Positions 32,147-63,345 of a stretch of DNA of 64,000 nucleotides are shown here, piece by piece. Location of the stretch: assembly GCF_964204645.1 (NCBI RefSeq), contig NC_134034.1, forward strand, positions 6,980,914 to 7,044,913. The letters are read 5' to 3'. Origin of the DNA: Tubulanus polymorphus. Lineage: Eukaryota > Animalia > Nemertea. The notes under the pieces are model-generated. The model had not been told where the DNA came from. It did no database searches and worked only from the letters and a program-made list of their open reading frames with translations. Made by a program: the position numbers and the translations under genes. Numbering within the stretch: position 1 is the stretch's first letter; every line of letters begins with the position of its first letter.

Positions 32147-32166
32147 TTAATTTTTTTGTTAAATAA

Positions 32167-35574: not shown

Positions 35575-35604
35575 AAATATAAAGTTAAAATTAACGATAT
35601 ATAA

Positions 35605-37640: not shown

Positions 37641-37711
37641 TTGTTGCTTATATAACTGGGAGGTGAAAATAAAATAAAATTTAAAATAGTGATGTTCCAA
37701 TTGAAAAAACT

Positions 37712-40067: not shown

Positions 40068-40196
40068 ATCAAATCTATCAACATTAACACTTCCCATTTT
40101 AAATACTTTTTTTAATACCATTGAATAACCAACAGTTCCAACTGATAGTAAGGCTCCATAATATAATCCAGTTATTATCCACTTATAATCACTCAT

Positions 40197-40553: not shown

Positions 40554-40569
40554 TTATATAGTGAAAAAA

Positions 40570-41328: not shown

Positions 41329-41396
41329 TATTTATAACATTAAAAAATTACCGCTCATCACTAAAAATTAATTTTAATAAAATTTTTCCTTAATAA

Positions 41397-44583: not shown

Positions 44584-45993
44584 TGGAACTCTCCTGAACT
44601 ATCTAGATGGTTATCTCTCGACTCAATAGCTTCAAGACCCATCTCAAAACAACTTTGTTCCATGCAGCATACCATTAACTCTCGGAATGCGAATTGGATT
44701 TAACATTTTTTTTGGCAGAATAAAATTTGATTGAATTTGCAATTCGAGCACATGGCTAATTAGCATATCAAGTTCATACACTCGATTTGGGAAAAGAAAT
44801 TTTTTGCGAACCTTGCGCAATTGTCAAGGATGAATTTTCTGTAGAGCAAATAAAAATTCCTCCCAAACACCAAATCAACTAAAGATTTCATAAAAATCGA
44901 TCTTGAAATACAATTTTAAATCTTAAAATAAAACCCGGAAGTAAAACAATAGACGATACCGCGGGTTCACGTGAACACCTGATTTCTGTAAACGAAATGT
45001 TGGTTGTGACAAATTGTTCGGACGGTTTTAGGTGGTAATAAGTATGGAAACGTAACGACCATGGTCGACTTATTCACACTTATTATATGAAATCAGGCCT
45101 ATGTGATATCCACATTTTGACTTTTTTACTCTCCAGACCTCCCTGATATAGAAATAAAAAATTTTGGTGGTACGAATAGTGCAATCACAGCGCCGACGGC
45201 GACAGAGCCGTGTCAGAGATCGGCGGAGTGAAAATTGCGGAGGTGGACGAACACGAAGAAGTAGGCTATTGAGCTACTTGAATGCTGGCGCGGCCCCGAC
45301 GCTTTTCGTTGATTAAGTAGTACAAATATCAAGCAATGGGTTTTCACAATCTACCGCCGGTGTTTACCGGATTTCAATATCACTCCAAAATTCAAAGAAA
45401 CCTCGAAATATCGAACCGCAACACTTTCGGTAGATATCCGCAGCTACCCAACCGGGAAACTTATTTGTTGATAGCATCGATAAAATCCATCATCTTCTCC
45501 CGTCAAGGGATTCGAACCCACTAAGCTAAAGCCGTGCCAGAATCGGGTCGGGCCAATCACAGCGCTTGTAACAAACCACATTAGGCTTCTGTGGAATTTC
45601 CCAGTAAATGGGCCAATCAGCGAACACGTAGCGAACGCGGAAGTATTGTCGCGTGTTGATACATGACGTCATGCGCAAAAGCGCCAGTAATGAAATCACG
45701 ATAATTCACGTGAACAGCTGCTGATATTTTTAGATAAACCAATCACAGGGAAGACACAACTTCCCGATTGGCTGATAAAAATTGAAATTTTCCCGATTGA
45801 TTTATTGAATTATGGAATAATGATCCAAATAATGAACAATACGTTGAGGATCCGATGTTTATACTAGAAAATGATTCTATTTGAACCTATATACATTCAA
45901 TGTACAGAGCTATGGAATAAATCTATAAATTCACAGCTGTTACAGCTGTTACTATGAATCATTATTACAAACATGCAAAAATACGTATAATAA

Positions 45994-46668
45994 ATGGAAC
46001 CAGAACAACCACAAACTATCAATATTACAAATAACACTGGTGTTATAAACATATACTACAAGAAGTGTTCTAAGTGTGAATTAGATAAATCATTAACAGA
46101 ATTTAGTAAGCGTAAGATTAGCAAAGATGGTTTTCAATATTATTGTAAAACTTGTATTAAACTATATACCAAACAATATCGAGAAGATAATAGAGAATCT
46201 TATAATGATTATATGACAGAATATATGAGAGAAAGATATCAAACAGATCTTAATTTTAGATTGAAACAATGCTTAAGGACTAGATTAACACAATTATTCA
46301 ACAAAGAAACACATTCAGAAACACTATCTAATTTATTGGGTTGTTCAGATGAATTTCTCAAATCATGGATTATATTTCAATTCGATGATAAAATGAATAT
46401 AGATAATTATGGGGATTATTACCATATTGATCACGTGTTACCAATATCTAAATTTAACATGAACGATGAATACAATAAAAAACTTATTTGGGGTTGGAAA
46501 AATTTAAGGCCTTTAGAAAAGAAAGAAAATCAAACCAAATCTAATAAACTAGATTTACAGTTATATTTAGAACAGTTAACAAAAGCAAAGAAATTTATTG
46601 ATCAATGGAATAATGATCCAAATAATAAACAATACGTTGAGGAATTTGATATCAAGGATCCGAAATGA
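45994..46668 (+). CDS. HNH-family endonuclease of the type common in large DNA viruses, with N-terminal Zn ribbon
   Basis: KKCSKC...FSKRKISKDG.QYYCKTC; YHIDHVLPIS...NLRPLEKKENQTKSNK. Confidence 0.82.
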   Translation: MEPEQPQTINITNNTGVINIYYKKCSKCELDKSLTEFSKRKISKDGFQYYCKTCIKLYTKQYREDNRESYNDYMTEYMRERYQTDLNFRLKQCLRTRLTQLFNKETHSETLSNLLGCSDEFLKSWIIFQFDDKMNIDNYGDYYHIDHVLPISKFNMNDEYNKKLIWGWKNLRPLEKKENQTKSNKLDLQLYLEQLTKAKKFIDQWNNDPNNKQYVEEFDIKDPK

Positions 46669-47000
46669 CTTATCTGGACAGTTATAACTACTGCTCCTAA
46701 TAGATGGTGCCATAAACAGCACCCATACAGTGATAGACAAAAGTAGTGAGATATCAAATCCTAATTTAAATAAAATATAATAAAAAAACAATAACTTCAA
46801 CTGCTAGTGAATTCTATTATATTTTTAATATTTTCTTTTCAAAAAGAGAATACTTTATATTTTGAATAGATCCGAATAGAAATTCTTTAAATTCAAATAG
46901 CTAGTATCAGTAGTCAATACTAGAGTTCTTTAACTTTAACTATCTAGTATCATTTGAAGAATACTTATAATATTTTTTTTGCTTTTTTTCTCTAATATAA

Positions 47001-47603
47001 ATGTCAAAGAAATCTAATAAGAATAGTATTGATATTGAAAACACATTAGATGATTTAGGTATTAGTGATAATAAAGATACAGTTGTTTCTAATTCTATTC
47101 AAGTTAATAACAATATTGATTATGAATACTATTTATATTGTAAGCATCATCTTGAATTATTAATTGCTGGCGGGAAATCTAAGGACTTCTTAGGAAAAAT
47201 AATAACTTTTCAAGAACTAGACTCTATGAAACCCGATAAAGTAATAAAATATTTTAAGATTTATGAAGAGGCAAGATTATCTAAAATAAATGATTCTATT
47301 TTGAATGGTATTGTCAAATGTTATTCTAAGTTATGTAACCAGTTAATACCAATTGATGATGAAAATAAATTATATAGTGATTTAAAAAATGACTACTTAG
47401 TTATGGCTGAATTACAAAAATGGGTTGGATATGCTTCATTTCAATTGGGATCGGTTATGACATTAATTTCTACTGGCGTCATAACATTTTCGAACATCAA
47501 GCCTATGGAATATAAATCAGGTAAGAACGAAACAGATGTACTACAACCAAACGTCGAAACAGAAAATGAATCGGAACAAAAATTAACTAAAATAAATGAG
47601 TGA
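47001..47603 (+). CDS. 200-aa hypothetical protein with a C-terminal hydrophobic segment
   Basis: Conserved with the copy A 37712 ORF; TAAATG start. Confidence 0.78.
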   Translation: MSKKSNKNSIDIENTLDDLGISDNKDTVVSNSIQVNNNIDYEYYLYCKHHLELLIAGGKSKDFLGKIITFQELDSMKPDKVIKYFKIYEEARLSKINDSILNGIVKCYSKLCNQLIPIDDENKLYSDLKNDYLVMAELQKWVGYASFQLGSVMTLISTGVITFSNIKPMEYKSGKNETDVLQPNVETENESEQKLTKINE

Positions 47604-47989
47604 TGGAGTTAAGAAAAAGGTTAGATCCGATAAACAAATTAAATGGGCAAGAGAATTAGGTAAAAGATCTTCAGAATTAAAAAAGCTAAGAAAAAGAAAT
47701 TAACTGACATAAATGAATCACAGAAATTATCTGATGATGCCGTACGGCACCCACACGGTGGTAATGATTCAAATAATAATCCATCTAATTCTTCTAATAG
47801 TGGAAGAAATAATTACTTATATATTACAATTGGGTTAATCACAATTTTTATATTCTCCGGTGTAATATATAAATCAAAATTCAATTCTGATGATAAAGAT
47901 GATTCCAATGATGATAAACCTATTATACCAGAAAATAAGTCAAATCATAAATCAAATGAAAATAAATCTAAAATATTATTAATGGATTA
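47596..47989 (+). pseudogene. ~130-aa single-TM protein with a frameshift near 47695 (not in the ORF track)
   Basis: TAAATG start MSDGVKKKVRSDKQIKWARELG; continues in another frame as NYLYITIGLITIFIFSGVIY...KILLMD*; homolog in copy A. Confidence 0.7.
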
Positions 47990-47996
47990 AAATAAG

Positions 47997-49082
47997 ATGA
48001 AAAAAGAACAATATTTAAGAGATTTATATTATAACCCAGAAAGTGAAGTATCATATTCTAACGTTTCAGAATTATGGAATAAAATTAAATCTGATAATAG
48101 CAATATAAAATATAGTGAATTAAAATCATGGTTACAAAATCAACCAACATATCAAATCCACAAGAAAATGGATAAAAAATATTTAACAAGAAAAGTAATG
48201 GTTTCATATATTGACCAACAATGGCAAGCTGATTTAATTGATATGAAGAACTTAGAGGAATACAACAAAGGATATTTTTGGATACTAAATGTTATAGATA
48301 TATTCAGTAGATACGCATGGAGTATCCCGATTAAAAATAAAACTGGTATAGAAGTAACAAATGCTTTTAAATCTATATTTAAAGAAGCTATCCCAGATAA
48401 AATACAATTTGATGAAGGTAAGGAATTTTATAACAAACATTTTAAAAAACTATCAACTGATAACGATGTAGAATATTTTTCAACACATTCAGATAAAAAA
48501 GCATCTGTTATAGAAAGATTTAATAAAACATTGAAAACTAGAATGTGGAAATATTTTACTGCTAATGAAACATATAAATATATCGATGTGTTAGATGATT
48601 TAGTGAAAGGTTATAATAATTCTAAACATAGTTCTATAAATATGAAACCTATACAAGCTAGAAAAGAAGAAAATTCAGAAATAGTTTGGAATAATTTATA
48701 TGGAGCATTTGTTACACATGATTTTGGAGAACCTAAATTTAAAATTGGACAACACGTAAGAATTTCTAAATATAGAAAAACATTTTATAAAGGTTATACC
48801 CCTAATTTTACTGAAGAAATATTCAAGATTAAAAAGATAATATTAACTAAACCATTTGTTTATAAATTGTTTGATTTAAAAGATGAAGAAATATTAGGTT
48901 ATTTTTATGAACAAGAATTATCATTAGTACCAAATCCAGATGAAATAGAATACAAAATAGAAAAGGTATTAAAAACAAAAACTCTTAAAGGAAAAAAGTA
49001 TTCTTTGGTGAAATATAAAGGATATGATGATAAATTTAATGAATGGATTTTATCTAGTAAAATTAAAAGAATAAATGAATAA
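47997..49082 (+). CDS. Retroviral-like (RVE/c-integrase) DDE integrase with C-terminal chromodomain
   Basis: QWQADLIDM, VIDIFSRYAW, IQFDEGKEF, IERFNKTLK; chromodomain YKIEKVLK...SLVKYKGYDDKFNEWI. Confidence 0.95.
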   Translation: MKKEQYLRDLYYNPESEVSYSNVSELWNKIKSDNSNIKYSELKSWLQNQPTYQIHKKMDKKYLTRKVMVSYIDQQWQADLIDMKNLEEYNKGYFWILNVIDIFSRYAWSIPIKNKTGIEVTNAFKSIFKEAIPDKIQFDEGKEFYNKHFKKLSTDNDVEYFSTHSDKKASVIERFNKTLKTRMWKYFTANETYKYIDVLDDLVKGYNNSKHSSINMKPIQARKEENSEIVWNNLYGAFVTHDFGEPKFKIGQHVRISKYRKTFYKGYTPNFTEEIFKIKKIILTKPFVYKLFDLKDEEILGYFYEQELSLVPNPDEIEYKIEKVLKTKTLKGKKYSLVKYKGYDDKFNEWILSSKIKRINE

Positions 49083-49689
49083 AGATTTGTTTATATTTGA
49101 ACCGCATAATATGTTAGTTACTGGAGTTACAAATTGTGGTAAAACACACTTCATATTAGATTTATTAGAAACTATTTATAAAAATCATTTCGATAATATA
49201 ATATTATTCTGCCCAACTTATGAAATGAATGAAACGTATAATAGAGATATAGTTTTTAAAGATAAAAAGTTTATTATATTAAATTCTAAAACAGTGAAAG
49301 ATAATTTAGATAATTGTATAAAAATTGCATTAGATATTTATAAAGGATCTAATACATTATTTATTATTGATGATTGCGCAAATTTACATGATTCTAAAAT
49401 TAGAGAAAGTGAGTTGTGTTATTTAGCTTTCTCTGGTAGACATTTTGGGATAACAACTTGGGTTTTAAATCAGAAATATAATTCAATTGTGAAAGATTTT
49501 AGAGAGAATATAAGATTTCTAGTTTTATTCTACAACAAAGATAGAAAATCTATGCAACAATCATTGGAAGAAAATCGAATTATACCTCCTGAATTACATG
49601 ATGAATATATGAATAAATTAAAGAATAATAAAGGTTCAAAATTATTACTGAGATTACAATTTCCATATGAATATAAATTTATAAAATAA
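49075..49689 (+). CDS. A32/FtsK-like DNA packaging ATPase
   Basis: Walker A GVTNCGKT, Walker B FIIDD, GRHFGI..LNQ motifs. Confidence 0.92.
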   Translation: MNKDLFIFEPHNMLVTGVTNCGKTHFILDLLETIYKNHFDNIILFCPTYEMNETYNRDIVFKDKKFIILNSKTVKDNLDNCIKIALDIYKGSNTLFIIDDCANLHDSKIRESELCYLAFSGRHFGITTWVLNQKYNSIVKDFRENIRFLVLFYNKDRKSMQQSLEENRIIPPELHDEYMNKLKNNKGSKLLLRLQFPYEYKFIK

Positions 49690-49699
49690 CTATTTGTAT

Positions 49700-50745
49700 A
49701 CCTATGTATTAGATATGTATTAGATATGTATTATATACCTCCCCTAATGTCTTTATTATCTTTAGTACTTTAGTACTTTTAGTACATAAAGAATTAATCT
49801 TTATTTTATTAGTAGTGAATAAAATAAAATAGAACTACTAAACTACTAAAGATAATAAAGACATAACAAACACCATAGATTTATCATTACTGAATCAAAT
49901 ATATATAATAAATCTGTAAGATAAATAAATTTATGATATTTATTACATCTATATGTGTTTGTTATGTCTTTATTATCTTTAGTAGGTTTAGTACTTTTAG
50001 TACATAAAGAATAAATCTTTATTTGATTAGTACTTAGAAAAATAAATATATAAATAATTTTTATAAATGATAAATATATGATATATATAATAAATATGTG
50101 TGATAAATAGATTTAATTATTGAAACGGTAATATATAAAATCCATCAGATGAATAAATATATATATTTATATCTTTATTATCTTTAGTAGTTTAGTAGTT
50201 TTAAAAATAATTTTATTCACTACTAATAAAATAAAGATTTATTCTTTATGTACTAAAAGTACTAAACTACTAAAGATAATAAAGACATAACAAACACCAT
50301 AGATTTATCATTACTGAATCAAATATATATAATAAATCTGTAAGATAAATAAATTTATGATATTTATTACATCTATATGTGTTTGTTATGTCTTTATTAT
50401 CTTTAGTAGGTTTAGTACTTTTAGTACATAAAGAATAAATCTTTATTTGATTAGTACTTAGAAAAATAAATATATAAATAATTTTTATAAATGATAAATA
50501 TATGATATATATAATAAATATGTGTGATAAATAGATTTAATTATTGAAACAGTAATATATAAAATCCATCAGATGAATAAATATAATTATTGAAACAGTG
50601 TTATATATATATGTATGTCTTTATTATCTTTAGTAGTTTAGTAGTTTTAAAAATAATTTTATTCACTACTAATAAAATAAAGATTTATTCTTTATGTACT
50701 AAAAGTACTAAACTACTAAAGACAATAAAGACACAAAGGTATTAT
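49700..50745. repeat. AT-rich intergenic region of interleaved direct and inverted repeats (~424-bp tandem period)
   Basis: tgtctttattatctttagta and its reverse complement tactaaagataataaagaca recur throughout; ~49860-50280 is repeated at ~50284-50700. Confidence 0.88.
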
Positions 50746-50759
50746 ATTCATATTTTAAA

Positions 50760-51944
50760 TTACTTTTCTGATTCTAATTCTAAAAACAATTTGCGCCATG
50801 CATCTCCTAATTCTTGCGATCTTCTTTCACCTAATAGTTTAAAATGATAACCATCAACCACATTCAAACCCTTAGCAAAGAATTCATAAGTTAAATAAAT
50901 ATATTGGTTTAATTTGTCTTCACTTATATTTTTATATTTATTTTTTGTTTCATTTCTTATTTTATTTATAACATCCTGTGAAAAATCTTCATAACTATAG
51001 TATTGAATTATTTCATCAAAGTTATCACTTATATTATCATTAGCAGCAACTTTTTTCAATTCTGTTAAAAAATCTATATTTTCAAATTTTATGAAATAAT
51101 GTATACCCCAATAATTATTTAGATCAATTTTTATACGCGTCCGACCAATTTTAATATCTAATAATACTTGTTTTGGATTATTTCTTACATAATCGATAAA
51201 AATTGATCTATATAATTTCCTATGATCATTATTTTCGATATCAAAAAATACATTTGGTACTCTATAAAGGTTATTTAAATCAGCAGCTTTTATTGTATGT
51301 TCAAAAGAATTATCATGTTTAATTCTATCTTTAGGTAATACAACAACATTACACTTTTCACATATATTTCTTTCTATATTATCCAAATGTATCTGTGTTA
51401 ATTTATGCTTTGAAAAATTACTACGACTTATATATTTATCACATTCTTCACAATATTTATCTTCTTTAACATTATCATTATCAATTTCACTATCATTATC
51501 CAATTCATTTAAAATCTTATTCTTATTTTTCTTATGCTTGAGTGAATTAAGATGAGTTGCCCAATTCTTATAACTTTTATACTGTTTACATACGTCACAA
51601 TATTTTTCATTTGTCTTTTTTGATTCAATATCATATGTAGAGGGTATATTATAAGATGTAGATGCTGTTACATCTTCTATTTTATATTCAATATCATTCT
51701 TATCTTCTATTTTAGTTTCAATATTATCTTCTATTTTATATTCAATATCATTCTTATCTTCTATTTTAGTTTCAATATTATCTTCTATTTTATATTCAAT
51801 ATTATCTTTTATTTTACTTATTCTATATTTGAATTGATTAAAGTAATCTCCAAAATACTTACTGTATTCATCATAAGGTAATATATAATATATATCTGAT
51901 ATCATTTCACTTGGAGATTGTATTTCATATATTCCACCTTCCAT
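50760..51944 (-). CDS. Zn-finger protein with acidic tandem repeats
   Basis: (IEYKIEDNIETKIEDKND)x2 followed by three CxxC...H..H fingers. Confidence 0.8.
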   Translation of the reverse strand: MEGGIYEIQSPSEMISDIYYILPYDEYSKYFGDYFNQFKYRISKIKDNIEYKIEDNIETKIEDKNDIEYKIEDNIETKIEDKNDIEYKIEDVTASTSYNIPSTYDIESKKTNEKYCDVCKQYKSYKNWATHLNSLKHKKNKNKILNELDNDSEIDNDNVKEDKYCEECDKYISRSNFSKHKLTQIHLDNIERNICEKCNVVVLPKDRIKHDNSFEHTIKAADLNNLYRVPNVFFDIENNDHRKLYRSIFIDYVRNNPKQVLLDIKIGRTRIKIDLNNYWGIHYFIKFENIDFLTELKKVAANDNISDNFDEIIQYYSYEDFSQDVINKIRNETKNKYKNISEDKLNQYIYLTYEFFAKGLNVVDGYHFKLLGERRSQELGDAWRKLFLELESEK

Positions 51945-51976
51945 TTAATATAAGATTTTTTATTAAAGTTAAAATT

Positions 51977-53224
51977 TTAATACATAACACTATCTAATTG
52001 TGAATTTATAATATTTAATTGCGCGTCAGATATAATATAAATATGCATTTTAAAATTTTTGATTCCCTTTTTCTTTGTCATGAATAATTGTATTCCATCT
52101 TTAGTGTTCTGTAGTTTTTTCCCAGAACCATGTAATGAATTATCTTCAGTTGTTCTAAAATCTAACCATAATGCAAATTTATTACCGGTATAATAATTTA
52201 TTTGATTAATATTACAATTTTCAAATGATTTTATTTTTTCATTCATAAAATGTTTTTTAATTTCTGGCCATTGATCAATCATTCTCATTCCTTGACAAAA
52301 TATTTTATTTGCTATTCCTTCGATAGTTATTTCTACTTTTGTTATTTCAGGATTATAATAATTGTCAACATTTATTGCGCCATTAGTATACGTTCCAATG
52401 GTAAAAAATATTAATATACCTTTAATAGATCTTCTAGGAAAGTTAATATTCTCATTAATTATTTCAGCATTTGCATTAATAGTTACAGTTTTAAATTTAT
52501 CAATATAATCATATAATAATGAAAATCCTTGATTGTATTGAGTTTGAATTATACTTGAAATATTTTCATCAGTTACTGTATCATATTCTAAACATATATT
52601 CGATAATTTATAACTCATATCTTTAACAACGCTTGATAATACAATTTCATTTACAGGAGCAAATGTTATCTCAAATATAATATCTTCTTGAATTGCGTAT
52701 TTATATAAAGGTGCATTATTATTTATCAATTCAAAGTCTAATGGAATTTTATATTTGCTTCCATATATACTTTTTATCAATTTATCTACATCATTAGTTA
52801 ATATTGCGCTATTAGCTTCTGATCTTAATTTATTTTGGTTTTCTGATTGAATACCCTGAAATATCATATTATTTCTATTTTCTTTAGTTAACCATAAATC
52901 TTTATAATGCATAAATAAATTATAATCATCTAATGAGAAAACTGTTTCTGGACCAATCTTTATTGTTAACTTTTTAATCAAATATCTTCCAACATTATCA
53001 ACGACATAATTATTATTATTACCGATTACTTTTATATCGGCTGATAAATAAATACTGTTTGGAACATAAAAAGTATTTTGTGTTAATCGAGGAATTCTAA
53101 CATATAAAGTTTCATCGGGATTAATATTTGAAGGGTTATGAGTAATTATATGATGTGATCTTTCTGCTTTAATAGCATTAGATATTCTATGATTCTTAGA
53201 AGGACTTATATAACTCCCACTCAT
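51977..53224 (-). CDS. Major capsid protein (putative double jelly-roll)
   Basis: 415 aa, rich in predicted beta-strands, the most conserved gene across the three copies; size and context fit a Polinton MCP. Fold is inferred, not computed. Confidence 0.8.
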   Translation of the reverse strand: MSGSYISPSKNHRISNAIKAERSHHIITHNPSNINPDETLYVRIPRLTQNTFYVPNSIYLSADIKVIGNNNNYVVDNVGRYLIKKLTIKIGPETVFSLDDYNLFMHYKDLWLTKENRNNMIFQGIQSENQNKLRSEANSAILTNDVDKLIKSIYGSKYKIPLDFELINNNAPLYKYAIQEDIIFEITFAPVNEIVLSSVVKDMSYKLSNICLEYDTVTDENISSIIQTQYNQGFSLLYDYIDKFKTVTINANAEIINENINFPRRSIKGILIFFTIGTYTNGAINVDNYYNPEITKVEITIEGIANKIFCQGMRMIDQWPEIKKHFMNEKIKSFENCNINQINYYTGNKFALWLDFRTTEDNSLHGSGKKLQNTKDGIQLFMTKKKGIKNFKMHIYIISDAQLNIINSQLDSVMY

Positions 53225-53266
53225 TTATTTAACAAAAAAATTAATTATTTATTTTTTTATTATGGT

Positions 53267-54976
53267 TTACTTGATATTTTTTGATATCATATTTACTAAA
53301 CCAAAAATAATAGCACTTACAACTGTAATTAAAAATAAAATAATATGTTCAGCAGCAAAGTTAATAATGTTTCCTGCAGATTTCAATATAAAACCAACAA
53401 TTGAAGCAATAACTCCTGGCAATGCTGCAGCAGATTTTTTAGATAGTTCCCATAAATATTTTGCTAATTTCTTTAAACCATCTTTAACTTTATCTTGTAT
53501 AGAATTATTGCCTGGAGGTTTATCCGGTTTATTGGGAGTGGGAGTAGATTTCAAAGCATTTGATATTGCTAAACCAATTGTTGTAAATACCATAGTTACA
53601 GCCGTTAGAATTGAAAGAACTGTTATTCCTTCTAATTTAAATAATAACTTTATTCTGTCTTTTAATGATATTTCAGAATCTGGTTTTATCAACAAATCTT
53701 TAAAAATAACTTTTAATTTTTTAATATGATTAAGATCATATGATTTTAATAATATATCTCTTTCTTCTTTTTGTAATTTTATGTTATATTCTAAATCATC
53801 TATTTCTTTTACTAAAGCTAACTTTCTGCTTTCAAAATCAGCTTCATAAACTACTTGATGATCTCTATTTAATTCTAATTGTTTTAATTCTTCATCTGCA
53901 TTAGTTAATTCTTTTTCTAACATGGTTATTTTAGAAAATCTCATCTTAATATTAGCAATTTCATCAGCTGATACTTGTATACCTTTAATTTCTCTACGTA
54001 TTTGTTCAGGAAATGCTTCTAATTCCTCATCAGTTAAATTAAGAAATCCTTTTTCTAGTAAATATTGCAGTCGATTTATTCCAGTTTCAGAACCAGATGT
54101 ATCTGATATACTATTCATCAGTTCTTCTGAATCTCTTAATCTATCAATTTGTTTTTCTAATTGTAATTGACTTGAATAATTATCAATTGGTTGAGTGTCT
54201 CTTCTCGATGTTTCGGGTGTTGAAGATCTTAATCTATCTAATCGATTTCTATTCTCTTCCATTTCTGGATCAAAATCAGTAGGATTTGGATTTTTAAATG
54301 GTGAATATTTGTTTATATCAATATTCGGAATTGGTTCTTCTTCATTTATTCAATCGAATGCATTCCATATAATTCTGAGAAATTCTCTACCACCTTTTGA
54401 ATTTTCAATTGTAGATGTTGCTCGTATTTCAGGTTCAAAAATATTTTCTTGACCCATTTTAGATAATTGAATTGATACAATTTTGTTATTTAAATTAACA
54501 CTATAATACCATGAATCATTTTTAAATTCTAAATTATTTGTGAAATATGGGTCATCTTTAAAAATTTGTTCTACAACACCTTCTGAATCAATTTCATCTA
54601 TTACAACTGTTGGTAATAATTCGTTAACAATTGTATCTGTTACTCTAGATTTCATTTTGAATAATTTCATAGGTTTATCAGGATATTTTTCTTGTTCTTT
54701 TACTAATAGTTCCATAAATTCTTTTCTTTCTCTTCTAGTTGAAATTCTACCAATTTCAGGAGCTTTTAAATATTTATTTAATTTTTCACGTAATTCGGGA
54801 TCATCATCATCATCATCATAATCATCATCTTCACCTAAATTAGTATTATATGCTGATTCATCATCATTATCAATATTAGTTTCATTAAAATCGGTTTGTG
54901 GTTCATCATCAATATATCCTTCATTATTATTTCCCATTGCTCCCATTTCATAATCTTCTCCACCTTCTACATCCAT
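53267..54976 (-). pseudogene. Single ~569-codon acidic/coiled-coil membrane protein interrupted by one in-frame TGA (54350-54352)
   Basis: The 208-aa and 331-aa ORFs share a frame, separated by TGA plus 29 open codons; copy A has both ends in one locus; C-terminal hydrophobic helices. Confidence 0.78.
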
Positions 54977-54992
54977 TTATATAATAAAAAAA

Positions 54993-56294
54993 TTAAAATT
55001 TAAAATATAATATTCCTCCGATTACAATTCCTATACAAGTTATAGCTAATTTAGTATTTTCATGGGATTTATTATCATCATTTAGTTTAATTATATCATG
55101 TTGAATTTTATCCGTTCTATTATTTTCTGATGTATTGTAATCTTTTATTTTAGAATCATTATTTAATTTAATATTATTAGTTTTAGTTTCTGTTGATTGA
55201 ATATGTTTTTTATTTTTTTCATCTTCCATTAATTTTGGAGCAGTAATAATCTTTTTATTTATATCATTTAACCCAAATGAATTATTTATTGTTGCAGTTT
55301 TAATTAGATTATTATAACCAATTATGTTTCCCATCTTTAATACTAAATCATTAGAAATAATTAATAGATTAGGGCCTATACAATAATTAAGTCTTACATG
55401 AGATTTGTCTAAATAATTTTGATATCTTATAATGTTTTCTGGAATCGATCTATTTTTATCATTATGAATTGAATCTTCAAATAAAACTTTAAACTGTTTC
55501 TGCGCATCGAATGAAGTGTTATCATTTCCAATTATTGGGGATCTTGTTTCAACTTGAGCGCCTAAAATACATATCAAATAAATTCTAATAGATTGATTTA
55601 TTCTTTGTATACCTGATTTTGTAAAACCTTCACCATTTTCTAAAATGAAATTAACCCAACCATTATTATTATCAATTTTATAATTATGATAAGCTGAAAT
55701 TCTATGCATATAATCAATTCTTTTTATTTCAAACTCTTCACCAACACCTTGCAATTTACCATGCGCTCTGAAATCGGAATTAATATTTATATTAAATTCA
55801 TTACATATTTTATAAAACTTAGATAGATTAATATTATAATCCAATTTTTTAAAATATTTAGACCCGGGTAAAGGACATTCTAATTCATTTAATATTATTC
55901 TGATTTGAAAATATGTGTGAAATCTAAATATTGTGTGAATTAATTTTAAATCAGAATACTTCAAATTTTTATCTAAGTTATTTAAATGATCATTCCAACT
56001 AATTCCACATCCTGTTGTTGCACAATAAACAGCAAAATTTAATTGATTCTGCCAATATTTCATATTAGATTTTACTTTATATATATGATATTCATCTCGA
56101 GTAAAAGTAACTTCATATGTATTAAATATATTTTCCATTTTAGAAATAAAAAACTGTGATTCATTAACATAAATTTCTAAATTAGTTAATGAATTTAAAA
56201 CTACATTTTTATATTTAATATTTTTCTTAAAATCTATTGCCGGAATATTATATTTAATTGATTTATTATATTGGAAAGCTTTTGGAAACCCCAT
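54993..56294 (-). CDS. 433-aa protein with C-terminal TM anchor
   Basis: WQNQLNFAVYCATTGCG core; tail LAITCIGIVIGGILYF. Confidence 0.8.
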   Translation of the reverse strand: MGFPKAFQYNKSIKYNIPAIDFKKNIKYKNVVLNSLTNLEIYVNESQFFISKMENIFNTYEVTFTRDEYHIYKVKSNMKYWQNQLNFAVYCATTGCGISWNDHLNNLDKNLKYSDLKLIHTIFRFHTYFQIRIILNELECPLPGSKYFKKLDYNINLSKFYKICNEFNININSDFRAHGKLQGVGEEFEIKRIDYMHRISAYHNYKIDNNNGWVNFILENGEGFTKSGIQRINQSIRIYLICILGAQVETRSPIIGNDNTSFDAQKQFKVLFEDSIHNDKNRSIPENIIRYQNYLDKSHVRLNYCIGPNLLIISNDLVLKMGNIIGYNNLIKTATINNSFGLNDINKKIITAPKLMEDEKNKKHIQSTETKTNNIKLNNDSKIKDYNTSENNRTDKIQHDIIKLNDDNKSHENTKLAITCIGIVIGGILYFKF

Positions 56295-56310
56295 TTATAT
56301 AACTAAAAAA

Positions 56311-56745
56311 TTAATAATTTATTAATTCTTTTAATAATTTATCTTGTTCTTCAACTGTTATATGGCCATTTAAACTTATTATATAATCTAGTGTGTTCTT
56401 TAATTTATTAATTTCTTTTATATTAGATTTTATTTTTTCTTTATTACTTTTTATATTTAATTTTGAACTTATACCAGTTAAAACACTTGAACTTAATCCT
56501 AACACACCAATTGATATAGCTAAAGGTGTTAATGGACTGAATATTGCTAAAAATGTTATTACAGAACTAATTGTAACCGAACCACTTATAATCAAATAAT
56601 ATATAATTTTACTTTTTAAATATTTTTTCTTTTTTATCTTTAAGTCACTTTCAAATTCTAATATTTGTTTTTCTAAATATGTTTTTAATTTAGTTTTATT
56701 TATATCATGAGGAATAATATCAATATTATCAACTTTATCTTCCAT
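56311..56745 (-). CDS. 144-aa two-TM (SLATT-like) protein
   Basis: Two adjacent hydrophobic helices flanked by charged helices. Confidence 0.72.
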   Translation of the reverse strand: MEDKVDNIDIIPHDINKTKLKTYLEKQILEFESDLKIKKKKYLKSKIIYYLIISGSVTISSVITFLAIFSPLTPLAISIGVLGLSSSVLTGISSKLNIKSNKEKIKSNIKEINKLKNTLDYIISLNGHITVEEQDKLLKELINY

Positions 56746-56764
56746 TTATTTAGAATAAAAATTA

Positions 56765-57187
56765 CTAATTAGTAAACTTATAAGCAACAAATATAACAAT
56801 AACTGTTCCGCCTAAAATCCATATTATTTCATATTTCTGTTGTTCTTTACTTGGGGTATAATAATCTGATAATTTAGGTTTGTATAGATGTAATTTTTCT
56901 TTATTGGTTACCGCGTTATATAAACTCATTGCATCATCAACTGATTGAAAATCTCTATGTGAAATCTTCTGATCATATAATTCTTTATTGATGTAATCCA
57001 TATAGTTTTGTCTCTTTTCTCTATATTCTTCTGCAGCTTTATTATATTTCTCTAACGCTAAATTATGTCTTCTTTGTTCTCCTAATGAACTATTTTTATC
57101 AATATGTTTAAATAAATAACCACCACCAGTAAATGCTAAAGCGTTAACAATTGCCGATCCTATAATAGTTATAATTGCAGAAGCCAT
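56765..57187 (-). CDS. 140-aa membrane protein (hydrophobic N-terminus and C-terminal TM)
   Basis: MASAIITIIGSAIVNALAFTGGGYLF...IIWILGGTVIVIFVAY. Confidence 0.8.
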   Translation of the reverse strand: MASAIITIIGSAIVNALAFTGGGYLFKHIDKNSSLGEQRRHNLALEKYNKAAEEYREKRQNYMDYINKELYDQKISHRDFQSVDDAMSLYNAVTNKEKLHLYKPKLSDYYTPSKEQQKYEIIWILGGTVIVIFVAYKFTN

Positions 57188-57212
57188 TTATTTAGCAAAA
57201 AAAATTATGCAT

Positions 57213-57434
57213 TTATATGGGAGGAATATATTTTTGTTTTTCCAAATAATCAATAGTTAAATTAGATAAAGTAACCGCTAATGTTAACTTTAAAATATCA
57301 TTGATATCAAATCTATCAACATTAACACTTCCCATTTTGAATACTTTTTTTAATACCATTGAATAACCAACAGTTCCAACTGATAGTAATGCGCCATTAT
57401 ATAATCCAGTTATTATCCACTTATTATCACTCAT
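57213..57434 (-). CDS. 73-aa small membrane protein
   Basis: Conserved in all three copies; hydrophobic GALLSVGTVGYSMVL. Confidence 0.78.
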   Translation of the reverse strand: MSDNKWIITGLYNGALLSVGTVGYSMVLKKVFKMGSVNVDRFDINDILKLTLAVTLSNLTIDYLEKQKYIPPI

Positions 57435-57776
57435 TTATTTATCAAAAAATTTACTATCTTCAAAATATTTAGTTAACTTATTTATGATTATTTCAACATT
57501 TATTTCATTACTAGTTTTATGATTATCATATATTTTGGATAATATGTTTTTAATATCTTCAATAATTCCATCTTCATTTAATTCATAATATTCTAAAGGT
57601 GATTTAATTAAATCAATTACTTTTTCTATATTATACTTTTCTTTATCAATCATTGACGCATTGTTAAATAATTTACTTTTTATATCAGTAATTACATCAT
57701 TTAGTTTAATTCTCATTTCTTTACCATGTTTAAAATCAAACCCAAAACATATACTCGGGCCAACAGTTATATTCAT
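57435..57776 (-). CDS. 113-aa hypothetical protein
   Basis: Homologs in copies A and B; its stop overlaps the next TAAATG. Confidence 0.75.
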   Translation of the reverse strand: MNITVGPSICFGFDFKHGKEMRIKLNDVITDIKSKLFNNASMIDKEKYNIEKVIDLIKSPLEYYELNEDGIIEDIKNILSKIYDNHKTSNEINVEIIINKLTKYFEDSKFFDK

Positions 57777-57793
57777 TTATATAGTGAAAAAAA

Positions 57794-58555
57794 TTACTCT
57801 CTACATCTTATAACTAATTCATAAATTACAGGGAAATTATTTAAATCAATTAAGTATCCATTATGATTTCTAATTTCTAATCTAAAATTATTAAAACGAG
57901 GAATGCATGGTTTGAAATCACATTCTTTTAAATTATAATTTATTTGCGTTCCAAATTCTTTAACATTCTTCAATGGTAAAATGTTTAGTAAACCAGAATT
58001 ACAAGTTATATCTTTAGTTGCTTCGAATGTTTTTGTAGGATCAATTAAATTGCAATAAATATAAAAATGTGTGTAAGGTATTAAGTTTGGTGTAGTAGCG
58101 TCAATATTTGTAAAAGATCTATCTGGAAGAATTCCTAACAGTTTAGCTATAGGTTTTTTTACCATAAATTTATGTTTTTCACTATTAGACAACCTTATCT
58201 TTATTCTATCAGAACTCTCACTTTTTAAAAATCTAATACTAAACCCAGAACTACTACCTAATTTGTGCCAGGCTTTTCTATTAATTTCTTGTGCTAATGT
58301 ATCTAAATTATATAACCCCGGTTTTAAATATATATAGACCCATTCATTTTTATTTTTATTAAAAATTAAAAAAGCTCTATGTTCAATAGTTTTATTCGAT
58401 ATATTATAAAAAGAATTACATAAACTTATATTAACTAATTTTAAATCTACACAATTCTTAAATTCTCTATCTAATTGTACTAATAAATTATGTGATTTAT
58501 AATTTGTAAGTTTTCTAGAATCAACAAATATTCTGTATTCTTTTAATTCTACCAT
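57794..58555 (-). CDS. Minor capsid protein (penton-like single jelly-roll)
   Basis: YRIFVDSR..., NSFYNI, FYIYCNLI, LNILPL, FRLEIRNHNGYLIDLNNFPVIYELVI: pattern typical of Polinton/virophage/NCLDV minor capsid proteins. Confidence 0.78.
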   Translation of the reverse strand: MVELKEYRIFVDSRKLTNYKSHNLLVQLDREFKNCVDLKLVNISLCNSFYNISNKTIEHRAFLIFNKNKNEWVYIYLKPGLYNLDTLAQEINRKAWHKLGSSSGFSIRFLKSESSDRIKIRLSNSEKHKFMVKKPIAKLLGILPDRSFTNIDATTPNLIPYTHFYIYCNLIDPTKTFEATKDITCNSGLLNILPLKNVKEFGTQINYNLKECDFKPCIPRFNNFRLEIRNHNGYLIDLNNFPVIYELVIRCRE

Positions 58556-58572
58556 TTATTTTACATATTTTC

Positions 58573-58914
58573 TTATTCGAAATCTATTTCATGGTGCCCT
58601 TTTTCATTCTTACCTTTGTATACGAAATAGAAATCTCCAGAACATAATTCTTCTAGATCTTCACTTGATAATCTATGAAATCTATCCGGTAAATAAGTTC
58701 TGAATTTATATTTATTTCCTTTTAATCCTTCATATTCTAAATGAATTACTAATTTATCTCCATATTTATTAGTAATTGTTTCAATGTTAGTAATTAAATA
58801 TTTCTTGTGAATTGTTAACTCAGTTAGTTTTTTGAATTTATAATATACAGATTTGACGCTTGAAGTATCTTTAATTCTATCTAAGAATTCACTGTGTACT
58901 TGTTTACTCTCCAT
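58573..58914 (-). CDS. 113-aa protein, possibly OB-fold ssDNA-binding
   Basis: FKKLTEL...TNKYGDKLVIHL...TYLPDRF pattern, adjacent to pPolB; function is inference. Confidence 0.6.
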   Translation of the reverse strand: MESKQVHSEFLDRIKDTSSVKSVYYKFKKLTELTIHKKYLITNIETITNKYGDKLVIHLEYEGLKGNKYKFRTYLPDRFHRLSSEDLEELCSGDFYFVYKGKNEKGHHEIDFE

Positions 58915-58942
58915 TTATTATACACATTTTTATTGAAATTGA

Positions 58943-61900
58943 TTAACACGCTAGAATCCTTTTCATAATCTCATTTTCTTTTGTTTCTTCTCTTTTGAAT
59001 TTTATATATTCATCTAAATTGCAACCATAGGCGACTGTGTGGATTCCATCATCTAAAATATATCTTTTATCATCAAATGGGTTTAGACTTATCTTCTCTA
59101 TCTCTTCAATAAACATTTCATGATCTTCAGATCTTAAACATTTCATTTTATGTTTTCTAACTTCTTCATTAAATATACAATTGATGTAATCTTTGAAATG
59201 AATATTCTTTTCAACAACGCTTTTAGTAATTCCTTTTAACTTTTTAGCTTCATGAGTTTTAGTTTTATAACTATACATTTTAGATCTAATACCAATGAAC
59301 TCTATCATTTCTTCACCACCTAATTCATCCTTAAACTTCCCAGGAACTTTTTTATTATCATTGGTAAACAATTCATGATTTTTTGGATAGTTACTGAAAT
59401 CAAAATGATGTTTTAATGTTTTTAAATCATCTGTTATGTTATCAGTTTTTATCTTTAATATATAACTGTCGGTATCAAAGTATAGAATTTCTATGTGTTT
59501 TTCCCCAAAATGGGGTTGTAATATATTATAATAGAATTCATACATTAGGAATTTTGATAATTCTAAAACTGCAGCTCCAACATAAATTGGTTTATTAAAT
59601 TTCATTGAAGTTCTTCTCATCTTAACTGCTGCTAAATTTTCATCAAATATTCTGTTACCTATAAACTTAGGATATGATTGTAAATGCCTTATCCTTTTAC
59701 CATTACTAACTAACTCAATATCATTTCTATTTCTAATATTTTCACAAGTCTTACCATAGAACGCATTGTTCATTAGTTTAAAGTAATCTTTTTCAAAATC
59801 AGTTTTAGATTTAGTTCTCTGTGTAGTATTAAAATCTATATATTTTTCTAACCATTTAGATTGACTGAATGAAATATATCTATGTACTTTTTTTAATATC
59901 ATTCCTTGTCTCAAATAAAACTTCAACATTCTATAATGCACAACGTAATTATATTTATCTTCTTGAGTTACCATTAACTTTTCAGTATGAATATGATTAT
60001 CGGGTTTAATTCTTTTTTGATAATTTGATAATTCTTCATGTTTAACAGTTTTATGTTCGGGACAATATGCTAGATTTCTAGATTTGAATTTAATATTTTC
60101 AGGGTATTCTAAATCTACAACGAAGAAGTAACCAGTATCTGAATCATCTGCAATATCTAGGATTCTTTTCTTCCAATCAAATTTATCAATTTGTAAAACT
60201 TCAGTTATTTCAAACATCCCATAAGGTTGTGGTTCCATCATTGCCCAACCATAAAGATTATTTGCATCTATGTATAATAATTTATATCCAGGATTATCAT
60301 TTACATTGAAATATCTATCACCCAATACACCTGAAACACCTCCTCTTATAGATTTTTCAAATAATAATAATTGATCTATATTTGTTAACAAATCCATTTT
60401 TATATCTGTAAATTTTAATCCACAATCCCATGTTAATCCTGGTGATGAATAACAATGACAAGGATCAATATTGAAATATTTTAGGTTTACATCTCTAAAC
60501 CTTTCGAATATATCGGTTAATAATAATACATCTGATTTTAAATATAAATCTACTAATTGTCCATGATTTTCTATTTTGAAATGATTCCAAATATTCAATG
60601 TTCTATTATATACTTCATCTTTAACATATTCATTTTTTAATTCATCATAGAATTGTTCTTTTAATAATTCAGTTATTTTAAAATCATTATGATTTTTATA
60701 GAAAGAATATGGAATTGCTCCTTTATATCTCATTAATTGAAAATCATCATTATTTGGGTAGTGTTGTTTTAATATCTTTAATTCATCATCAACTAATGAT
60801 TTTGATAAGTTATCTAATGAACTATTTAAAAATCTATATGAATCTATAAATCTTAGACAACCAAATTGGAATGATATATAATTCTCAGATGTTTTAGCTA
60901 ACATTCTAAATTTATAAGTTGGTATTTTATCTTTTGATCTATTTGAATTTAATATTTCTATTTCATTATTGATTTCTTCTATTTTATAGCATAACTGTTT
61001 GATGAATAAATGTGCATCATATCCTGATAGATTATGAAATATAACTGGTACAAAGTTAATTTTCTTAGCTTGTAAGTTACAATTCTCATGCGCTGCGCCT
61101 CTAAACTTTCCATTCAAATGATCATGGTCTCTTACTTTTTTATCTTTATAATTAAATATCTTTTCACAATAATAACATTTATCTGAAAACTCAAATTCTT
61201 CTTTATCTTCTTCTGTCATAATTATTTCTTTATTTGTATTCAATAATTTACTAAATCTTATTTCATATTCAATTAATAAGTCACAAAAATGATTGATAAC
61301 ATTTTCATTTCTGTAATTATAATATTCACTTTCAATTAGTTCTGGATAATCAGATTTAATATATAACCCGAAAGCAGCAGCTGATTGATGAATCTTTTTA
61401 ATAGTATTTGTTTTTGGTGGTTCATCTGAAAAATCATTTTCATTAGAATTTAATTTCTTTCTTTTATAATATATTTCTTTTCTATTTTGATCAGTTAGTT
61501 CTTTATTTAATGATTCAAAATCTCCATATATTACAAATGGTACTTTATTTTTGTAATCATATTTTTTGAATTCTAATATTTTATCTTTTTCATTTGGTAA
61601 AACTAATTTACAATAATCATGATTTTCGCATAATTGTTTATGATTTAATAATGCACTTTCAGTTCTGAATTTATGTAAACATTTTCTACATAGATATATT
61701 TTATTATCAAAATCATTTTCTGATTTAAAAAATAAATCAATTCTTTTAATCCACATATAATGATTCCTATAATATAGTATATCTATAACATCCTTTGAAT
61801 CATAATCTTTTGATAGATATAAAGGTTCTAATGTATAATGTTTTATGTTGTTACCTTTTGTATTTGGTAATTTGATTAAATCAAATACATTTATCTTTAT

Positions 61901-62974
61901 ATTATTATCTCTTTCTATCTTTGGGATGTCTTTAATTATAACAGGATACTTATCTATCTTATAATTATTTTCAAATGGTTTATAATGAGTTAATCTAAAA
62001 CTATGTGTAATATCTTCTGTTGGATGTAAACAACTTATTATAGCCCATAGAAAACATTTTTTATCAAAATTTTGTATATTTATTACTGCTTTTGTTGTAA
62101 ATGGTAGTTTAATATAACTTGTTCCATTTATACTATCGTCTTTATAATATGATAAATTATTTTCATCAATTGGTTTTGATTTAGTTAACTTATTATATTT
62201 TGTGTTATAAACATGTAAAGTTATAAATATTATCTCATCAAATATTAAACCAGATCCTTCAAAATATTTCTCTTCTATTTTAGTTTTTAATTCATTATAA
62301 CATTTATCTAATTTATCATCTATATGTTGTTTAGATATAATATGTTGTGAATGAGAATTTATATTATATATTGGTTTATCTTCAGATTTTATAAACTTTA
62401 CTTTAACTGATATACTAATTTTTGGATATTCTACGTTTGTAATTATTTTTATTATTTCTTTCATATTTTCTAAATGTTTTTTATTTTCTTCTAACGTTTT
62501 TCCTTTATGAAATTTAAACTCGATAGCTGCTGGACCAATATCACTTTTAAATGCTTCGGTTATCTCTATATCTTTATTATTATCTAATGAATTAATATAA
62601 TTTCTTACATCTTCCATGTATGGTCTTTTATTGTTTAATTTATTTTTTATGCTTTTAATTGCGCTTTGTTTCTTATCGTTATCATTATCAAAATAATCTT
62701 CACCTATAATATCATTATTCTTATTTCTAATATGACTTATAGATTTTAAATGTTCTTTATAATATCTTTTATCACTGAATGATTGATTACATGTATCACA
62801 TTTATATGTTTCTTTTTCATTCTTTAATTCATCTAATTTAGTTTCTAATATATCATCTTCATATTCTAGTTTCAATTCATTCTCTAAATGTGTTTTAGTT
62901 TTATTGTGTCTTGCTTTTTGGGATTTATCTATATCGATATTACATGTTGGACAGTAGTACTTATTTGCTTCCAT
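58943..62974 (-). CDS. Protein-primed family B DNA polymerase polyprotein (Zn fingers, OTU-like protease motifs, endonuclease VII-like insert)
   Basis: ExoI YGDFES, ExoII FHNLSGYD, ExoIII YLKSDV; PolA YIDANNLYG, PolB KLMNNAFYGK, PolC YFDTDS; EndoVII CYYC..VRDHDH..GAAHENCN; DKKCFLWAI...NHY. Start taken at TAAAATG 62974; alternative ATG at 63007. Confidence 0.95.
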   Translation of the reverse strand: MEANKYYCPTCNIDIDKSQKARHNKTKTHLENELKLEYEDDILETKLDELKNEKETYKCDTCNQSFSDKRYYKEHLKSISHIRNKNNDIIGEDYFDNDNDKKQSAIKSIKNKLNNKRPYMEDVRNYINSLDNNKDIEITEAFKSDIGPAAIEFKFHKGKTLEENKKHLENMKEIIKIITNVEYPKISISVKVKFIKSEDKPIYNINSHSQHIISKQHIDDKLDKCYNELKTKIEEKYFEGSGLIFDEIIFITLHVYNTKYNKLTKSKPIDENNLSYYKDDSINGTSYIKLPFTTKAVINIQNFDKKCFLWAIISCLHPTEDITHSFRLTHYKPFENNYKIDKYPVIIKDIPKIERDNNIKINVFDLIKLPNTKGNNIKHYTLEPLYLSKDYDSKDVIDILYYRNHYMWIKRIDLFFKSENDFDNKIYLCRKCLHKFRTESALLNHKQLCENHDYCKLVLPNEKDKILEFKKYDYKNKVPFVIYGDFESLNKELTDQNRKEIYYKRKKLNSNENDFSDEPPKTNTIKKIHQSAAAFGLYIKSDYPELIESEYYNYRNENVINHFCDLLIEYEIRFSKLLNTNKEIIMTEEDKEEFEFSDKCYYCEKIFNYKDKKVRDHDHLNGKFRGAAHENCNLQAKKINFVPVIFHNLSGYDAHLFIKQLCYKIEEINNEIEILNSNRSKDKIPTYKFRMLAKTSENYISFQFGCLRFIDSYRFLNSSLDNLSKSLVDDELKILKQHYPNNDDFQLMRYKGAIPYSFYKNHNDFKITELLKEQFYDELKNEYVKDEVYNRTLNIWNHFKIENHGQLVDLYLKSDVLLLTDIFERFRDVNLKYFNIDPCHCYSSPGLTWDCGLKFTDIKMDLLTNIDQLLLFEKSIRGGVSGVLGDRYFNVNDNPGYKLLYIDANNLYGWAMMEPQPYGMFEITEVLQIDKFDWKKRILDIADDSDTGYFFVVDLEYPENIKFKSRNLAYCPEHKTVKHEELSNYQKRIKPDNHIHTEKLMVTQEDKYNYVVHYRMLKFYLRQGMILKKVHRYISFSQSKWLEKYIDFNTTQRTKSKTDFEKDYFKLMNNAFYGKTCENIRNRNDIELVSNGKRIRHLQSYPKFIGNRIFDENLAAVKMRRTSMKFNKPIYVGAAVLELSKFLMYEFYYNILQPHFGEKHIEILYFDTDSYILKIKTDNITDDLKTLKHHFDFSNYPKNHELFTNDNKKVPGKFKDELGGEEMIEFIGIRSKMYSYKTKTHEAKKLKGITKSVVEKNIHFKDYINCIFNEEVRKHKMKCLRSEDHEMFIEEIEKISLNPFDDKRYILDDGIHTVAYGCNLDEYIKFKREETKENEIMKRILAC

Positions 62975-63019
62975 TTTAATACTAAATTTTTTATTAAAAT
63001 TGAACATAACACTTACCTC

Positions 63020-63345
63020 TCAACGCGTCCCGCCACGTGTGAGTCCTACCACGTGTGAGTCCCGCCTATTTATACTACTCAACAGTGGGGGAAACCCAGC
63101 TGCGTGTTGAGACTTGTAAATTATGAGGCTTGTGATTGGCTAGTGTAATAGGGAATACTCAACTGTGATTGGATAGAGTAATACTCAACTGTGATTGGAT
63201 AGATTAATAGTAAAATACTCAACTGTGATTGGCTGGAAATACTCAACTGTGATTGGATAGAGTAATAGGGAATATTCAACTGTGATTGGCTGGAAATACT
63301 CAACTGTGATTGGCTAGGGTAATACTCAACTGTGATTGGCTAATG
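63020..63345 (-). promoter_or_regulatory. Host Pol II-type promoter upstream of pPolB: 8 CCAAT boxes, TATA box, GC box, E-boxes
   Basis: Eight tgtgattgg units (CCAATCACA on minus) at 63131-63340; TATAAATA at 63067-63074 on minus; GGCGGG; two CACGTG. Confidence 0.65.

Follow-up and report, generated by a model that had tools for sequence, protein, structure and literature searches.

The definition of Polintons (Mavericks) typically includes an adenovirus-like maturation protease (PMC10748475). In mavirus and the endogenous mavirus-like elements (EMALEs) of Cafeteria, the promoter motif matches that of the helper virus, lineages differ in their motif, and only the matching type is reactivated (PMC10945749). 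Few Polinton-like viruses (PLVs) have been studied in culture, according to the same source. Animal PLVs (AHEV_PLV1, AHEV_PLV2, CBEV_PLV1 and Ca_PLV1) were co-purified with entomopoxvirus occlusion bodies and proposed to be hyperparasites of poxviruses (PMC11296320). Helper-matched promoters are already known, namely from virophages, the Gezel-14T PLV and transpovirons. Here we examined a stretch of 64,000 nucleotides from the nemertean Tubulanus polymorphus (NC_134034.1, positions 6,980,914 to 7,044,913 of the forward strand; hereafter the window, whose own numbering is used below). It harbours a Polinton-type element, called copy C, together with two decayed copies, A and B. Nearly all genes of copy C begin at the motif TAAATG, preceded at a fixed distance by a T or A tract, which resembles the post-replicative promoters of vaccinia virus.

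Copy C is similar to animal Polintons in carrying pPolB, an rve integrase, a packaging ATPase, a double jelly-roll capsid protein and a penton protein within about 17 kb, in having many chromosomal copies, and in the HNH-type insertion of its pPolB. It is unlike them in that no maturation protease was found, several membrane proteins are predicted, neither terminal inverted repeats nor a target site duplication were detected, and a promoter-like motif is fused to the start codons; PMC10748475 does not discuss such a motif, the word 'promoter' being absent. With mavirus and EMALEs it shares the endogenous state, the combination of integrase and pPolB, and a helper-type promoter motif at most genes. 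Unlike copy C, however, those elements possess a virophage capsid, a protist host, the late motif TCTA of Cafeteria roenbergensis virus (CroV) and an activation demonstrated by experiment, whereas copy C has a likely animal host and a pox-type motif, and is known here from sequence alone. The entomopoxvirus-associated PLVs, compared by their description, are about 12 kb long, encode a cysteine protease and lack an rve integrase; the main text of PMC11296320 mentions neither promoter, TAAAT nor motif. The Gezel-14T PLV and the pacmanvirus transpoviron are likewise small elements bearing their helper's promoter motif, but as described this motif is AAAATTGA or TATATA, it occupies a subset of genes, and the hosts are protists. 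The likeness to vaccinia comprises TAAAT(G) at the start codon, a peak of T some 10 nt upstream, the existence of two types, one preferring T and the other A, and an A32 ATPase of the A-preferring type. In the literature searched, mainly openly accessible papers, we came across no description of pox-type promoters in a Polinton lineage.

The start motif in copy C and its relatives

A preliminary description of the window had claimed that 14 of the 16 genes of copy C begin exactly at TAAATG, and at each of the 14 positions the ATG was found to be the gene start. Its two exceptions were also correct: the integrase starts at AATAAG-ATG (47997) and pPolB at TAAAATG (62974). The integrase start is TAAATG both in copy A (35605) and in the relative L001, and pPolB has a further in-frame ATG upstream, at 63007. 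With a local upstream TAA frequency of 0.086, the presence of TAA at 14 of 16 starts corresponds to p~1e-13; for internal out-of-frame ATGs in open reading frames (ORFs) of the window family, the proportion preceded by TAA is 14/216. The T tracts reported upstream were recovered as runs of at least five T between -22 and -8 in 8/16 genes. Seven other genes have a run of at least four A in their upstream region, and the integrase has neither run. The TAAATG hexamer alone is insufficient as a signal, because 36 more hexamers between 45.9 and 63.0 kb head none of the 16 genes. A core pattern fitted to the window (AA, 2-6 A/T, T, 7-8 nt, TAAATG) was present at 13/14 starts versus 3/36 of the other sites. 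A TAAATG at 54345 was dropped as a candidate gene start (10 codons, other frame).

Relatives were obtained by a capsid profile search of metagenome contigs, in which 270 of 596 candidates were confirmed and the best 80 loci taken. Starts were compared in 12 shared gene families, with N-termini aligned with the homolog of another locus and identical upstream 20-mers removed. The motif extended to homologous elements: in the close set, consisting of the window and 14 loci with capsid identity of 50-77%, TAA precedes ATG at 41/49 starts (33/40 without the window). Three of the eight misses concern integrases, in which TAAA(A)T lies a few bases further up; at least three are likely mis-assigned or damaged starts. 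Outside this set the picture is different. None of 43 starts follows TAA in 14 distant loci below 38% GC, where a purine occupies -3 in 38/43 cases, and the count is 5/245 in 49 other distant loci. Hence, the same gene families carry TAAATG within the clade and Kozak-like purines outside it. Within the clade, 44/905 internal out-of-frame ATGs follow TAA, and the motif is retained at 36-44% GC (loci L006-L008, 8/10 ORFs). Motif-bearing loci form one capsid clade (14/60 rows; Shimodaira-Hasegawa-like approximate likelihood ratio test, SH-aLRT, 96 in a quick IQ-TREE run), which was also present after database proteins were added (65/99 rows, support 99, FastTree); rows shorter than 330 aa, among them L034, were excluded from the capsid trees. 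Some clade capsid fragments on contigs below 2 kb are labelled Bartonella (P0046, P0128-P0135); these are likely contamination and were not used.

The reverse comparison, from hexamer to gene, gave a similar result. An ORF of at least 100 aa is headed by TAAATG in 60/180 occurrences in the clade and by AAAATG in 0/150; in AT-rich distant loci the preference is reversed (1/85 for TAAATG, 22/140 for AAAATG). The core pattern was then applied to 13 held-out clade loci, from which L002 (near-identical to L001) and sites heading 30-64 codons had been excluded. It was found at 29/53 gene-heading versus 5/70 non-heading TAAATG sites (p=6e-9). In these loci T occupies -12 in 89% of heading versus 26% of non-heading sites, and -13 in 77% versus 30%, i.e. 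the T peak coincides with the 9th-10th base upstream of TAAAT. Head-to-head genes separated by 28-30 nt carry TAAATG on both sides (L009, L010, L011). No other strong start motif was found in the distant relatives; TATA at -4 to -11, though frequent in the AT-rich ones, was not above shuffles there. A weak observation is TATA 4-11 nt from the ATG in eight loci (L015, L018, L022, L037, L045, L062, L069 and L075; for example TATAAAAATG); TATA near the starts of AT-rich distant relatives could represent the motif of another helper, since late motifs of the asfar-like kind contain TATA.

In vaccinia, TAAAT(G) overlaps the start codon in late promoters, where the 10th base upstream is a conserved T; intermediate promoters have TAAA with an A-preferring region further up, the core lying 15-19 nt upstream (PMC11980589). 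The TAAA initiator is read directly by the core of the viral RNA polymerase (PMC12917281). The vaccinia-late character ascribed to copy C is therefore borne out by the TAAAT(G) initiator at 14/16 starts and the T peak about 10 nt upstream. Taken together, the sequence comparisons support the view that the start motif is a lineage-specific bipartite element of fixed spacing which matches the vaccinia post-replicative promoter. The eight T-run genes are those of the capsid, four predicted membrane proteins and three others; the seven A-run genes are those of the ATPase, HNH endonuclease, zinc-finger protein, penton, pPolB and two others. This fits the vaccinia classes, where A32 belongs to the intermediate and most membrane proteins to the late set, and we tentatively read the two sets as late-like (T-run) and intermediate-like (A-run). 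No early-type promoter was identified in the element.

Gene content and state of copy C

Copy C extends over about 45.8-63.0 kb and has 18-27% GC per kb (about 23%), as compared with about 35% in the surrounding DNA. Its 16 genes form two converging blocks and start at TAAATG except where noted above. The forward (+) block begins with an HNH-like endonuclease of 224 aa (45994..46668; HNH_4 E=0.033, a weak match; A-run), followed by a conserved gene of 200 aa from a 56-member family (47001..47603; T-run) and an interrupted gene (47596..47990; A-run) whose frame ends after 35 codons, relatives having 129-177 aa. The next gene encodes the integrase of 361 aa (47997..49082), with rve (E=1e-8) and Chromo (E=8e-5) matches in Pfam and TAAAAT 9 nt upstream of its start. 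Its end is overlapped by the TAAATG of the A32-type packaging ATPase of 204 aa (49075..49689; Pox_A32 E=1.4e-12 in Pfam; A-run). Between the blocks lies a non-coding array of imperfect palindromes (49747..50742; 17% GC) with a 424-nt duplication, in which a unit of about 36 nt alternates in orientation to form an imperfect-palindrome chain. In copy A, the ATPase is followed by another repeat array (37350-37680), and in L001 this region measures only 165 nt. The array of copy C could be an origin- or hairpin-like element.

The reverse (-) block, in order of coordinates, starts with a zinc-finger protein of 394 aa (50760..51944; A-run), whose C-terminal part resembles unnamed Nucleocytoviricota clusters in Atlas with scores of at most 0.88, a lead only. 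The major capsid protein of 415 aa (51977..53224; T-run) was modelled with AlphaFold from an alignment of 53 sequences (predicted local distance difference test, pLDDT, 88; 32 from a single sequence, and the aligned fold was used instead). The predicted fold is a double jelly-roll with PBCV-1 and iridovirus capsids as top matches (Foldseek E~1e-16); the capsid profile gave no match among PDB sequences. It is followed by a gene with an acidic N-terminus and coiled-coil/membrane features (53267..54976; T-run), with an in-frame stop at codon 209. Next come a conserved family gene of 433 aa (54993..56294; T-run) with a Met-Gly start and hydrophobic C-terminus, unmatched in Atlas, a predicted two-helix membrane protein of 144 aa (56311..56745; T-run), and a conserved predicted membrane protein of 140 aa (56765..57187; T-run). 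A conserved small protein of 73 aa (57213..57434; T-run), an ORF of 113 aa (57435..57776; T-run), the penton (minor capsid) homolog of 253 aa (57794..58555; A-run; profile match to PBCV-1 P1v1, E=2.9e-6) and a second ORF of 113 aa without Pfam family (58573..58914; A-run) precede pPolB (58943..62974; A-run core). Predicted membrane proteins are encoded by four genes in total. The 1343-aa pPolB ORF has N-terminal zinc fingers, an endonuclease VII/HNH insertion and intact catalytic motifs (DFES, YIDANNLY, KLMNNAFYGK and YFDTDS); Pfam matched accessory domains alone, and no match was obtained among phage proteins.

This gene set, as read from the sequence, supports copy C as an integrated Polinton-type virus. 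pPolB, the rve integrase, the double jelly-roll capsid, penton and A32 ATPase are all Polinton/Maverick hallmarks; the adenovirus-like maturation protease, which is typical of them, was not found. Neither a maturation protease family nor an RNA polymerase family was detected in the Pfam scan of the 16 ORF translations, several of which have no assigned family. As the capsid fold is nearest to PBCV-1 and iridoviruses and no protease family was seen in Pfam, copy C does not qualify as a virophage in the strict sense (Maveriviricetes). The reported absence of introns stands as far as uninterrupted frames at the DNA level are concerned.

Copy C is not intact, because two genes (those starting at 47596 and 54976) are interrupted. 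The second, from 54976 to 53267, is one frame broken by one internal stop. The C-terminal portion of this frame corresponds to residues 221-483 of an uninterrupted ORF of 485 aa in L003, so it is one gene and the count of 16 holds. Copy C is damaged and probably not self-sufficient. No terminal inverted repeats joining both ends were found within 44.5-64 kb, the window stopping about 1 kb beyond pPolB, and copy C may be truncated. No target site duplication, which in Polintons measures 5-8 bp, was detected either. The left boundary was placed by BLAST alone. Over 50740-63430, where contigs were compared, those of four runs (one organism, one study) contained many divergent versions of the element, which therefore constitutes a many-copy family. 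In some X1 and X2 contigs, 56731 is connected to 57184, and in one X1 contig 58908 is connected to 62973, a few letters intervening. Both joints fall at the start motifs of two genes, which looks as though recombination between such motifs had removed one whole gene. Most of the HNH gene is bracketed by a direct duplication of 51 nt (92%; 45800-45850 and 46593-46643) close to the apparent left boundary.

Copy A (28763..38695, +) is decayed and contains insertions, but TAAATG is preserved at several remnants of gene starts (28968, 30713, 32167, 35605 and 36749). Copy B (38950..42305, no strand assigned) is decayed and partial, with TAAATG at 40196, 40553 and 41397; the last was considered as the N-terminus of pPolB, which was not supported. 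A long array of a 31-nt satellite lies just upstream of copy A (21600-27900), and short diverged fragments of the capsid gene occur far from the three main copies (17040-17254, 18089-18173). Flanking fragments match Nrf1, Myb/SANT-like and long interspersed element (LINE) endonuclease families, as would suit an animal host; among them, an ORF fragment at 11929-12420 (-) resembles the Nrf1 DNA-binding domain (E=1.4e-11).

Candidate polymerases for the motif

We consider it reasonably probable, from the sequence, that the T/A-tract and TAAATG element of copy C, an integrated Polinton-type virus, is a promoter for the RNA polymerase of a cytoplasmic helper virus which co-infects the cell and has post-replicative transcription of the poxvirus type. 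Of the helper-virus reading advanced in the preliminary description, the Polinton type, the clade-specific motif matching poxviruses and the lack of a detected RNA polymerase family speak in its favour; its short-gap argument and the Pol II-type (RNA polymerase II) promoter of pPolB do not. Slippage of the poxvirus polymerase produces 5' poly(A) leaders. According to the proposed mechanism, the helper polymerase would initiate at the A's of TAAAT and by slippage prepend such a leader, placing an A at -3 in the mRNA. Because the leader would supply this A, T could be tolerated at -3 in the DNA and about 16-19 nt between genes would be enough. All genes of the element would be post-replicative, those with T-runs (capsid, predicted membrane proteins) late-like and those with A-runs (ATPase, HNH, zinc-finger, penton, pPolB) intermediate-like. 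Through its integrase the element would persist in the chromosomes of the host, where it would stay largely silent until helper infection, as in mavirus-type elements and as demonstrated for EMALEs with the motif of CroV (PMC10945749), and in some copies a terminal Pol II promoter might give pPolB some helper-independent expression.

Several observations weigh against this reading. The held-out loci are kin and not independent origins. The capsid gene carries a T-run, but D13 of vaccinia belongs to the intermediate class; the A-run is found 10-14 nt above TAAA, closer than the 15-19 nt of vaccinia intermediate promoters and overlapping their core in part; the T-run/A-run split fades in more distant clade members; and in 4/10 tandem minus-strand pairs the A's at -18/-17 belong to the upstream stop codon. 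TTTTTNT, the early terminator of poxviruses, shows no clear avoidance and no placement at gene ends, which is uninformative. The reading would also require a cytoplasmic polymerase to gain access to a chromosomal copy. Trans-activation of integrated pox promoters by vaccinia was not borne out in passages of PMC4985154 and PMC9578709. To the same side belongs the search for a helper: none was found in a promoter-pattern scan of IMG/VR that gave at least 120 loci (flanks in 80 of 120), the maximum among longer loci being 4/11 genes with TAAATG. Capsid queries had no match in IMG/VR or GTDB genomes.

The helper might also be another large DNA virus, for example irido- or pitho-like, with a similar A-rich initiator fused to the start codon; we regard this as unlikely, yet it survives best among the alternatives. 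The delayed-early AAAAT motif of iridoviruses and the TAAAT motif of ranaviruses resemble the A-run type (PMC5294985). In IMG/VR, one uncultured lineage that encodes a membrane protein of the L1R/F9L family (L110, L128, L130, L163) begins 2-3 of its 5-8 genes at TAAATG, and several of its starts combine a T run with TAAAT(G/A), which favours a non-pox helper, as does the zinc-finger protein with its nearest Atlas clusters in unnamed Nucleocytoviricota, again a lead only. However, the strict T at -3, the ATG within the initiator and the T peak 9-10 nt upstream are the poxvirus consensus. The late motif of CroV is TCTA (PMC5294985), asfar-like late motifs are described as TATATA, and among the matches listed no IMG/VR locus comes near the 80-90% of the clade. 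In L003 a deoxynucleoside kinase gene, an unusual Polinton cargo, also starts at a T-run TAAATG (10340-10981, -). None of its 38 homologs is named poxviral, and viral loci reached through this gene or the HNH gene have TAAATG at 1/15, 1/19, 1/2 and 1/15 starts.

Alternatively, and marginally less plausibly still, copy C would derive from an autonomous nuclear virus, with the motif serving as a compact Pol II core promoter or initiator for near-leaderless mRNAs; possibly, a zinc-finger activator of the element binds it, or it was inherited from a former short-leader host. Beyond the pPolB start, at 63011..63339 (-), lies a Pol II-type promoter signature aimed at this gene, with eight CCAAT boxes, TATAAA at 63074, two CACGTG and a donor-like GGTAAGT at 63017; this counts against the pox-type helper and speaks for host Pol II being able to read pPolB, at the least, in copy C. 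More CCAAT boxes occur at 45553-45767, zinc-finger genes are present in the element, and its chromodomain integrase implies a nuclear phase. The argument from gaps of roughly 15-40 nt, said to be too short for Pol II promoters, failed in the control, since motif-less relatives are just as compact (median tandem gap 5.5 nt in 148 pairs; head-to-head gaps mostly 4-82 nt). Short gaps are thus non-discriminating, which removes a support of the helper reading, and the family, with its equally tightly packed purine -3 relatives, may have a Pol II route. In motif-less loci (L017-L070), the penton/433-aa and membrane/capsid pairs are head-to-head, down to 4-49 nt apart, a spacing hard to explain with ordinary Pol II promoters.

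Other evidence stands against Pol II. A TATA box sets the Pol II start site at such a distance that, placed at the ATG, it would put this site inside the ORF, and the TATA-like letters of the motif lie directly at the ATG. The purine at -3 of outgroups is replaced by T. The T tract is not a splice acceptor, because a pyrimidine tract with AG precedes only 1/16 starts. Moreover, 17 contigs of X1 diverge from the window at 63003, and beyond 63036 the summed X1 depth is about 60-fold lower, so the promoter signature may come from a terminus present in a minority of copies or from an adjacent element. Outward of it, at 63439-63644, we noted a palindrome with 97-nt arms and a 12-nt loop.

It is improbable that TAAATG is a translation signal, i.e. 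a stop-start or AATAAA overlap coupling genes on polycistronic mRNAs. The TAA at 57434 is indeed the upstream gene's stop codon, the ends of the preceding genes reach over the starts at 47596 and 49075, and AATAAATG is seen at several starts. Nevertheless, the open frame that ends at this TAA comprises at most 22 codons at 13/14 starts; the block-first genes at 45994 and 47001, as well as the head-to-head pairs of L009-L011, carry the motif without a same-direction upstream gene; and a fixed T at -12/-13 is not predicted. That the motif is a mere by-product of AT-rich DNA, as the roughly 23% GC and the 36 further hexamers away from starts might suggest, is very hard to believe given its excess over local composition, its absence from the 43 starts of AT-rich relatives, its retention at 36-44% GC and its rarity at internal ATGs of clade ORFs. 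AT-rich context and stop-start overlap, two of the explanations against which the preliminary description had asked to be judged, therefore largely fail.

Expression and possible helper dependence of animal Polintons

The motif bears on the expression of animal Polintons and on their possible dependence on helpers, and it offers a means of predicting which helper to seek. Going beyond the pox-type helper of copy C, it is conceivable, though we would lean slightly against it, that a widespread animal-endogenous Polinton clade has adopted promoters of the pox late and intermediate types throughout, and that its members are inducible hyperparasites of poxvirus relatives residing in the chromosomes. 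If true, the motif would be a fingerprint of undiscovered pox-like viruses in the hosts of the clade, and would provide the mechanism left open by the study of entomopoxvirus-associated PLVs. It would also point to a virophage-style antiviral system in animals, and the biology of helper-triggered endogenous virophages would then reach from protists to animals.

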